DNA of 64,000 bases from Escherichia coli (lineage in GTDB: Bacteria; Pseudomonadota; Gammaproteobacteria; Enterobacterales; Enterobacteriaceae). Position numbers and translations under genes: made by a program. The notes under the pieces are model-generated. The model was given only the letters and a program-made list of their open reading frames with translations, searched no databases and was not told the DNA's origin. This document shows, in pieces, positions 30,871 to 60,793 of this stretch (its first letter is position 1; every line of letters starts with the position of its first letter). The stretch is from assembly GCF_003790525.1 (NCBI RefSeq), contig NZ_CP033635.1; one strand, given 5' to 3'.

Positions 30871-30946
<76 letters not shown>

Positions 30947-30981
30947 TTGGGTGGTCTGTGCTTTACAGCACTTTCAAATTT

Positions 30982-31057
<76 letters not shown>

Positions 31058-31178
31058 TTAATCTTCGTCTTTCGAACTGCTACTACCTTGGCTGCCTTCA
31101 CTCACCTTAGTCACTTACTTTTGTAAGCTCCCAAGGATTCGTTCAGTTGCCGCCTTGTCGCAATTCGAAATACTGCGA
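31058..31178 (-). other. 121-bp extra spacer segment inside the tRNA-Gly array, with weak tRNA-Gly-like blocks (possible decayed tRNA copy or small insertion)
   Basis: Spacer between second and third tRNA-Gly is 157 nt versus 35 nt for the other; the conserved 36-nt trailer repeat is present at 31179..31214, so 31058..31178 is extra; contains GCCAAGGT and AGTTCGA in tRNA order. Confidence 0.4.
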
Positions 31179-31214
31179 TTGGGTGGTCTGTGCTTTGCAG
31201 CACTTTTCAAATTT

Positions 31215-31290
<76 letters not shown>

Positions 31291-46786: not shown

Positions 46787-46804
46787 ATCAGGCTCCGGAG
46801 AATT

Positions 46805-46850
46805 GGGGCCGTCCCCGGTGAAAAGAGGCGTTTGCAGGTCGTCCTGCAAA
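46805..46850 (-). ncRNA. guanidine-II (mini-ykkC) riboswitch in the gdx leader
   Basis: On the minus strand: two short hairpins with ACGR loops, gcagg-ACGA-cctgc and gggg-ACGG-cccc, about 20-65 nt upstream of the gdx ATG. Confidence 0.7.
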
Positions 46851-46960
46851 GCTGATGGTTGAACGGATATTTTGCCAGGTGGCAGGGGAATTTCAACTAT
46901 TACCTTTGTGACTATTGCAAAAAAACAAACGGCACGACATAACTGTCGTACCGTTATTGC

Positions 46961-47107
46961 TTACTGCTGCGCTTTCGTTGCTGCGCCAGAAATCGCGTTA
47001 CCGCCATCAGAAATGTCTTCACCAACGCCACGCGTGGTGTTGCAGGCAGTTAATACTGTTGAAAGCACCAGAACAGAAAAGATCGCTGCAATTGTCTTCT
47101 TCACCAT
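46961..47107 (-). CDS. ecnB: entericidin B lipoprotein
   Basis: Manual reverse-strand translation [48 protein letters not shown] (not in ORF track because under 60 aa). Confidence 0.9.
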
Positions 47108-47217
47108 AACGTCTTCCTTTTAGGTAATGTTATTTATGTTTGCCTATAGCAAATTAATAATAGACAACATCACCAAAAATGATGGAAATCTGATGATTTT
47201 TCGGAAGAGAAGAAAAA

Positions 47218-47343
47218 TTAGCTGGCAGCGCGGGAGATGGAATTACCGAGATGTTTAATGTCTTCACCAAAACCGCGAGCGGTGTTACAGCCCGTGAGCA
47301 GCGCACTGGCAAGCAAAACAAGAACGATAAGGCGTTTCATCAT
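47218..47343 (-). CDS. ecnA: entericidin A lipoprotein
   Basis: Manual reverse-strand translation MMKRLIVLVLLASALLTGCNTARGFGEDIKHLGNSISRAAS. Confidence 0.9.
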   Translation of the reverse strand: MMKRLIVLVLLASALLTGCNTARGFGEDIKHLGNSISRAAS

Positions 47344-47394
47344 CTCTGACCTGAATAAGTGATGGTGCAGCCTGCAGGCCGCACCACAACCGCA

Positions 47395-60717: not shown

Positions 60718-60793
60718 GCCCGGATAGCTCAGTCGGTAGAGCAGGGGATTGAAAATCCCCGTGTCCTTGGTTCGATTCCGAGTCCGGGCACCA
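60718..60793 (+). tRNA. pheU: tRNA-Phe (anticodon GAA)
   Basis: GCCCGGATAGCTCAGTCGGTAGAGCAGGGGATTGAAAATCCCCGTGTCCTTGGTTCGATTCCGAGTCCGGGCACCA; pheU rather than pheV because of the yjdC/dsbD context. Confidence 0.96.

Follow-up and report, generated by a model that had tools for sequence, protein, structure and literature searches.

A guanidine-II riboswitch in the gdx leader of Escherichia coli and a candidate OFF state involving its second hairpin

The leader of the gdx gene (also named sugE) in the stretch of Escherichia coli DNA analysed here, a 64,000-nucleotide window, carries on its minus strand two small hairpins capped by ACGR tetraloops. This arrangement raises the question of whether the two hairpins form a riboswitch and, if they do, how such an RNA would hide the ribosome-binding site of its associated ORF. 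A sequence-only reading had assigned them to the guanidine-II (mini-ykkC) class and had named, as a check, the Rfam mini-ykkC model in Infernal; run on the window, this check clearly agrees with the assignment. When the whole window was scanned on both strands against Rfam 15 with cmscan, RF01068 (Guanidine-II) matched positions 46850-46804 of the minus strand over its full length (model positions 1-48), with a score of 50.4 bits (E-value 5.2e-7) against a gathering score of 32 bits. This is the single match in the window to a family other than tRNA, and the same scan of the window with Rfam 15 returned no match to the other guanidine riboswitch families (guanidine-I, -III and -IV). The window has a single occurrence of the pattern GGACGRCC-N10-40-GGACGRCC versus 0.01 expected from shuffles, and of the 23 hairpins on its two strands that combine an ACGR cap with a stem of 4 bp or more, those in the gdx leader are the sole tandem pair. 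We consider it virtually certain that the element at 46850-46805 is a guanidine-II (mini-ykkC) riboswitch controlling gdx. Taken as a whole, we judge the best explanation of the locus to be a guanidine-II riboswitch of gdx that functions as a translational ON switch, and we give this reading a probability of roughly 95%; the account of P2 refolding described below, which we attach to it, is far less certain.

Both hairpins are present as the earlier reading had described them, with ACGA in the first loop and ACGG in the second. Pairing element 1 (P1; 46850-46831, minus strand) comprises the 5′ strand UUUGCAGG (46850-46843), the ACGA loop (46842-46839) and the 3′ strand CCUGCAAA (46838-46831). 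Its stem had been quoted as 5 bp, which proved too short, as the Rfam alignment indicates an 8-bp stem that is also present in every computed fold. A 14-nt linker, CGCCUCUUUUCACC (46830-46817), separates P1 from P2 (46816-46805), whose 4 bp between GGGG (46816-46813) and CCCC (46808-46805) enclose the ACGG loop (46812-46809); these pairs, likewise taken from the Rfam alignment, are those originally quoted. The conserved loop-closing G-C pairs (GG-ACGR-CC) are found in both hairpins, as GGACGACC and GGACGGCC. [quoted passage not shown] The Shine-Dalgarno (SD) sequence itself, GGAG (46796-46793), was read from the sequence 8 nt 3′ of P2 and 6 nt 5′ of the start codon, and the same GGAG motif has been labelled as the SD in a published figure (PMC13064478, Fig. 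1). Between the end of P2 and the start codon (46786-46784) lie 18 nt, for which ‘about 20 nt’ had been a fair estimate. On the other side of P1, the 5′ tail of the leader (46862-46851) includes AUCAG (46856-46852), which is the complement of CUGAU (46791-46787) and could form a candidate P0b-type helix with it. By energy scoring, Escherichia alone has a strong complementarity here, and that of Citrobacter, Cedecea and Kluyvera is weak. The parts thus follow each other on the minus strand in the order ...AACCAUCAGC-UUUGCAGG-ACGA-CCUGCAAA-CGCCUCUUUUCACC-GGGG-ACGG-CCCC-AAUUCUCC-GGAG-CCUGAU-AUG.

The adjacent gene (46786-46469, minus strand) codes for a protein of 105 amino acids that both the NCBIfam SugE equivalog and the RefSeq annotation identify as an SMR-family guanidinium/H+ antiporter. 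With 192 bits against the NCBIfam NF008512 model (cut-off 126), the product bears out the SugE/Gdx exporter that had been proposed as the downstream gene, and all Qac and EmrE models score far under their cut-offs. By its sequence, the protein belongs to the SugE/Gdx clade of SMR transporters and not to the EmrE/Qac drug-exporter subfamilies; the corresponding K-12 product is named ‘guanidinium exporter’ in RefSeq. A consensus scan places a putative sigma-70 promoter at 46896-46869 (minus strand), consisting of a −35 box TTGAAA (46896-46891), a 16-nt spacer and an extended −10 element TG-n-CAAAAT whose putative hexamer CAAAAT occupies 46874-46869, and this promoter implies a putative transcription start at approximately 46864-46860. 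The TTGAAA...GGCAAAAT motif is also kept in Citrobacter leaders. A strong intrinsic terminator of the upstream ecnB gene, with a 12-bp stem and then a T-run (46955-46928, minus strand), directly follows the ecnB stop codon and, by consensus scan, would bound the gdx transcription unit on its 5′ side.

The locus has the gene order ampC-blc-gdx(sugE)-ecnB-ecnA-efp-epmB. The region is part of the E. coli chromosome, shares 100% identity with several complete genomes, and was found in 5,424 of 5,426. Set against E. coli SMS-3-5 at a simple offset, the window showed 2,399 mismatches in 50 kb, and so it and that genome are not base-identical. Elsewhere in the window are three identical tRNA genes in tandem (30874-31290, minus strand; 69.1 bits each) and one further tRNA gene (60718-60790, plus strand); the matching SMS-3-5 region is annotated with three tRNA-Gly genes and one tRNA-Phe gene, the latter adjoining a frameshifted integrase fragment. 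The RefSeq feature tables of SMS-3-5 and K-12 MG1655 list coding genes only at the gdx locus, with no riboswitch feature, as had been suspected of protein-centric annotation. It was also observed that a TTG codon at 46849 (minus strand) opens an ORF of 126 amino acids (46849-46469) that runs through the riboswitch into gdx, and that many public SugE gene calls are extended at the N-terminus to 124-176 amino acids. Most likely, the start sites of these extended calls have been misplaced across the riboswitch. Since the element is absent from RefSeq-style annotation and is read through by some gene callers as part of sugE, windows of this kind merit an RNA-family pass.

This riboswitch is not new. 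It is already known down to the individual locus and is among the best-characterised small riboswitches, in a bacterium better characterised than any other, and the leader is identical, base for base from the −35 box to the ATG, to that of K-12 MG1655, the sequence used in published studies; the earlier label of a ‘known element class’ was apt. As a finding the locus therefore adds nothing new, and what is left to discuss are its expression platform and its natural variants. The E. coli sugE/gdx representative of RF01068 is the same element, with the ACGA loop in P1, the ACGG loop in P2 and the gdx context all shared; the aptamer of the window does not differ from it, and a C-to-G variant in the linker occurs in approximately 20-40% of E. 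coli genomes. For the 49-nt E. coli aptamer, an NMR/SAXS study reported a KD for guanidinium of approximately 130 µM, with P1 (ACGA) as the stronger guanidinium site and with the appearance of two new G-C pairs that are consistent with loop-loop kissing (PMC9300104). In the same study, P2 was formed without ligand, in a construct that lacks the SD region. Single-molecule FRET and simulation revealed a P1-P2 kissing state in cis that depends on ligand and Mg2+ (PMC9094411), and the same paper gives the P1 crystal structure 5NDI as this E. coli sequence, which was used for NMR/SAXS in a further study (PMC12117010) as well. According to the literature on this sequence, each ACGR loop binds one guanidinium ion, the loops kiss via their C and G bases, and translation rises. 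Reviews list E. coli among the guanidine-II hosts (PMC12186494). The guanidine-I (ykkC), -III and -IV classes respond to the same ligand and control an overlapping set of genes, including those for Gdx/SugE exporters and guanidine carboxylase (PMC12186494), but they have unrelated folds, and guanidine-I and -IV act on transcription.

Genetic data from the same locus also bear on gene control. E. coli ZX-1 carries a 20-bp deletion upstream of gdx that results in constitutive gdx expression, and added guanidinium raises Gdx-dependent Cs+ resistance (PMC13064478). The ZX-1 expression data are from RNA-seq with n=1, and the authors call their own explanation presumptive (PMC13064478). The published deleted string, CCGGGGACGGCCCCAATTCT, maps exactly onto 46818-46799 (minus strand) of the window. 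By this exact string match, the deleted segment, CCGGGGACGGCCCCAAUUCU, consists of two nucleotides of the linker, all of P2, and AAUUCU.

Comparison with related species indicates which parts of the leader are held constant. When gdx orthologues were picked by protein only, RF01068 scored above its gathering score in all 10 chromosomal loci (E. fergusonii, E. albertii, three Citrobacter, Enterobacter, three Cedecea-type and Kluyvera), and also in two plasmid copies, one on a Chimaeribacter plasmid and one on an IncC blaCMY-2 plasmid. No RF01068 element was found upstream of an SMR gene with 48% identity. For nine enterobacterial aptamers (Chimaeribacter was left out of the column counts because MAFFT placed its P1 out of register), 95.8% of the cells are paired versus 38-58% when the partners are slid. 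Three pairs of P1 have changed on both sides among the nine orthologues (U-A/C-G, G-C/A-U and A-U/G-C), and P1 has a higher covariation score than 499 of 500 shuffles and every slid control. P2 is invariant in eight of the nine leaders, and this invariance is uninformative on covariation; apart from P2 of E. albertii, the loop-closing G-C pairs are unchanged. The stems hold while the linker drifts both between genera and inside E. coli, and the riboswitch-gdx unit is constant while its flanking genes vary by genus. Upstream, in the part equivalent to 46900-47350 of the window, lie ecnA/ecnB in Escherichia, ecnB in Kluyvera, and a divergently transcribed gene for a GerE/LuxR-type regulator in Citrobacter, Enterobacter and Cedecea; 3′ of the unit lies blc in every case but Kluyvera, where frdD is found.

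Some relatives imperfectly reflect the consensus. The exceptional P2 of E. albertii reads GGGU-ACGG-CCCC, in which the loop-closing G-C pair has become a U·C mismatch; the element (637-683 of the retrieved piece) scores 34.7 bits, just over threshold, the gdx gene is called at 102 amino acids, and this switch may be weakened or decaying. Upstream of an SMR gene on a Rahnella sikkimica plasmid, whose product is 52% identical to Gdx, are two ACGA hairpins, CUGG-ACGA-CCAG and CAGGG-ACGA-CCCUG (530-577 of the retrieved piece). Their combined score of 26.2 bits is under the Rfam gathering score of 32, and the pair is probably a real member of the guanidine-II class that default thresholds miss. In high-GC genomes, the bare GGACGRCC-N10-40-GGACGRCC pattern is abundant by chance, with at least 12 occurrences per Nocardiopsis, Arthrobacter or Solirubrobacter genome among the matches listed. 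The pattern is specific in this window of 52% GC, but loop-motif matching alone cannot identify this riboswitch outside genomes of moderate GC content.

Within E. coli, the leader is conserved in at least 5,406 of 5,426 complete genomes. Position 46827 of the linker is polymorphic, with either C or G on the minus strand (CGCCUCUUUU or CGCGUCUUUU). Exact leader matches with the window allele were counted in 3,152 genomes and with the G allele in 1,124, including O157:H7, and the latter count is a lower bound. The G is also present in E. albertii and C. sedlakii, and the variant is located inside the proposed linker anti-SD.

The remaining question is how the SD is hidden in the ligand-free state. 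Nearest-neighbour folding, in which neither ligand nor kissing complex can be represented, predicts that the weak 4-bp P2 hairpin would lose, without ligand, to an alternative helix spanning 46815-46780 (minus strand) in the minimum-free-energy fold. Bases of P2 (GGGACGGC.CC) would pair with the SD region (GG.GCC) as well as with codon 2 and the preceding G of the start codon (GUCCU), and would thereby hide the ribosome-binding site. The predicted pairs join 46815-46811 (GGGAC) with 46784-46780 (the G of AUG plus UCCU), 46810-46808 (GGC) with 46793-46791 (GCC), and 46806-46805 (CC) with 46796-46795 (the GG of the SD). Ligand-stabilised kissing would then lock the P2 hairpin and free the SD and AUG, whereupon Gdx could be made and guanidinium pumped out of the cell. 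This P2-refolded structure has a predicted free energy of −27.2 kcal/mol. A structure that keeps P1 and P2 intact and forms a local hairpin around the start codon (UCCGG:CUGGA) is predicted at −25.7 kcal/mol, and a P0-type structure with P1 and P2 intact plus AUCAG:CUGAU and CUCU:GGAG at −21.3 kcal/mol.

Comparative folding and control calculations are consistent with a role for P2 in hiding the SD. Each of the ligand-free folds has the SD predicted as paired, and its main predicted partner in nine of nine Enterobacteriaceae leaders is the P2 segment, which accounts for 2.4-3.0 of its 4 nt, versus 0-0.5 for the linker. Forcing P1 and P2 to form costs 1.5-7.5 kcal/mol in these nine leaders. Enterobacter and Cedecea have an altered SD-AUG spacer and codon 2, yet pairing with P2 is predicted there in a new register. 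When 44 other annotated E. coli start regions were grafted onto the same aptamer as a control, none exceeded 6.1 expected base pairs with P2, whereas the native gdx start region has 8.5; this native value was reached by seven of 200 shuffles. P2, the SD and codons 2-3 are all held fixed by constraints of other kinds, so that true covariation of the OFF helix cannot be shown. Judging from these models, we put the prospects of an OFF state in which P2 is refolded on the SD and AUG, as opposed to one built on the linker and P0, at about even. The wider proposal that P2 itself serves as anti-SD and anti-start-codon in Escherichia, Citrobacter, Enterobacter, Cedecea and Kluyvera, as a toggle between P2 and P2:SD/AUG, we advance still more tentatively and rate at slightly below an even chance.

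The OFF state drawn in the literature differs from this arrangement. With P1 and P2 folded, the linker anti-SD (CUCU) would pair with GGAG, and AUCAG in the 5′ tail would pair with CUGAU to form P0b, until kissing pulls P0 apart. [quoted passage not shown] The P. aeruginosa riboswitch (Reiss & Strobel 2017, PMC5558903; PMC10351892) belongs to the same aptamer class, likewise switches translation ON for an SMR/SugE-type target, and like the E. coli RNA has its SD just 3′ of P2. The P0/anti-SD arrangement, with the anti-SD in the linker, is also the one drawn for E. coli (PMC9300104, PMC9094411); moreover, the exact 5-bp complement AUCAG:CUGAU is present in E. coli, and the isolated aptamer has P2 folded without ligand by NMR (PMC9300104). 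However, for E. coli and its relatives, as distinct from P. aeruginosa, folding predicts that pairing with the SD and AUG uses up P2, and the linker anti-SD is weak and polymorphic. In E. coli, the predicted stability of the P0-type structure falls 5.9 kcal/mol short of that of the P2-refolded fold. Its P0a helix has just 4 bp, one of which is a G·U pair, and at least 1,124 E. coli genomes, as well as E. albertii and C. sedlakii, have a G in place of the linker C of its C-G pair. The loss of this SD-pairing nucleotide was counted in favour of P2 refolding over the linker/P0 arrangement. Beyond Escherichia, the tail complementarity is weak, at −2.2 to −4.0 kcal/mol. ZX-1 bears on the same choice, since its RNA could still form P0 (predicted at −14.0) and cannot kiss, and would be expected to be locked OFF if P0 were the OFF state, whereas it is observed to be constitutively ON. 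As this strain has lost P2 and kept the linker, SD and tails, its phenotype was likewise counted for P2 refolding. On balance, we regard the P0-based OFF state as unlikely for the gdx leader of E. coli.

The P2-refolding account is not without difficulties of its own. In E. coli, just 1.5 kcal/mol separates the P2-refolded fold from the one that keeps both P1 and P2, and there too the SD is hidden, by codons 2-4 in a local hairpin that would mask it in the ‘ON’ fold and in ZX-1 as well. The predicted accessibility of the SD in ZX-1 remains low, and therefore P2 refolding alone fails to reproduce the phenotype. With these caveats in mind, the comparative and control analyses offer a specific and testable alternative to the textbook drawing of the OFF state. 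If true, one aptamer class would operate with at least two expression-platform designs, and the toggle would explain the de-repression of gdx on deletion of P2, in ZX-1 and as a candidate in a natural clinical isolate described below.

A precedent for such mutually exclusive helices is the add adenine riboswitch of Vibrio vulnificus, a translational ON switch in which a strand of the aptamer doubles as the sequestrator of the SD and the ligand selects the aptamer fold. The favoured OFF state of gdx would resemble it in that helices exclude one another in both; the aptamer, the ligand and the architecture differ, and thus the likeness, offered as an analogy, would be one of mechanism only.

Control at the level of transcription, with P1 and the U-rich linker acting as an intrinsic terminator and attenuator in place of translational control, is very improbable. 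A consensus scan does mark P1 plus CGCCTCTTTT (46850-46821, minus strand) as terminator-like, and gdx mRNA is increased in ZX-1 by RNA-seq (PMC13064478). However, the U-run begins 6 nt past the P1 stem, the terminator scan yields two such sites where 0.9 are expected by chance, and the run is absent in Enterobacter, Cedecea and Kluyvera, all of which have the riboswitch. The ZX-1 deletion leaves P1 and the U-run untouched, a raised mRNA level is explicable by translation protecting the transcript, and the guanidine-II class has been described as exclusively translational (PMC10351892). We rejected this reading on account of the distance of the U-run from the stem and its lack of conservation, and the terminator-like call is probably incidental.

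The weakest alternative, in which the hairpins are a chance occurrence or relic, or are coding sequence of the TTG-initiated 126-residue SugE (46849-46469), can draw on the fact that this ORF does cross the aptamer and that several database calls of SugE (124-176 amino acids) are extended in the same way, but we consider its probability negligible given the Rfam E-value of 5e-7, a structure that compensatory changes preserve from genus to genus alongside a drifting linker, the published ligand binding, indels between leaders that leave the extended frame unconserved, and the 105 amino acids assigned by both RefSeq and the NCBIfam equivalog, and we accordingly rejected the extended ORF as a gene-calling artefact.

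Natural lesions of the leader are of separate interest. The transporter controlled by the riboswitch influences tolerance to guanidinium, to Cs+ and, reportedly, to quaternary ammonium and ionic-liquid compounds, and natural deletions or truncations of the leader, as seen in one clinical isolate and on IncI1-type blaCMY-2 plasmids, could alter resistance phenotypes. E. coli strain 167 (NZ_CM132950.1), a clinical urine isolate, has a natural 29-bp deletion equivalent to 46829-46801 of the window, in which the whole linker, P2 and AAUU are lost while P1, the SD and the ATG are kept; it resembles the deletion of the laboratory strain ZX-1. Approximately 6-20 of the 5,426 genomes have a partial leader match or none, and may hold similar lesions.

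We considered, and rejected, the proposition that every blaCMY-2-blc-sugE module carries a truncated riboswitch, given that the copy on the IncC blaCMY-2 plasmid is intact (47.2 bits) and that P1 is cut at the IncI1-type junction only. Our literature search found no paper joining sugE, blaCMY-2 and a riboswitch. On the IncI1-type blaCMY-2 plasmid pAR-0404-2 of Salmonella Heidelberg (549-600 of the retrieved piece), the blaCMY-2-blc-sugE insert, which derives from Citrobacter, has its boundary within the P1 loop. The 5′ strand and loop of P1 are thus lost to sugE, and what is kept is the P1 3′ strand together with the linker, P2 and the SD. An Rfam search of this sugE leader gave no match, and the pAR-0404-2 junction is common to 64 plasmid records.
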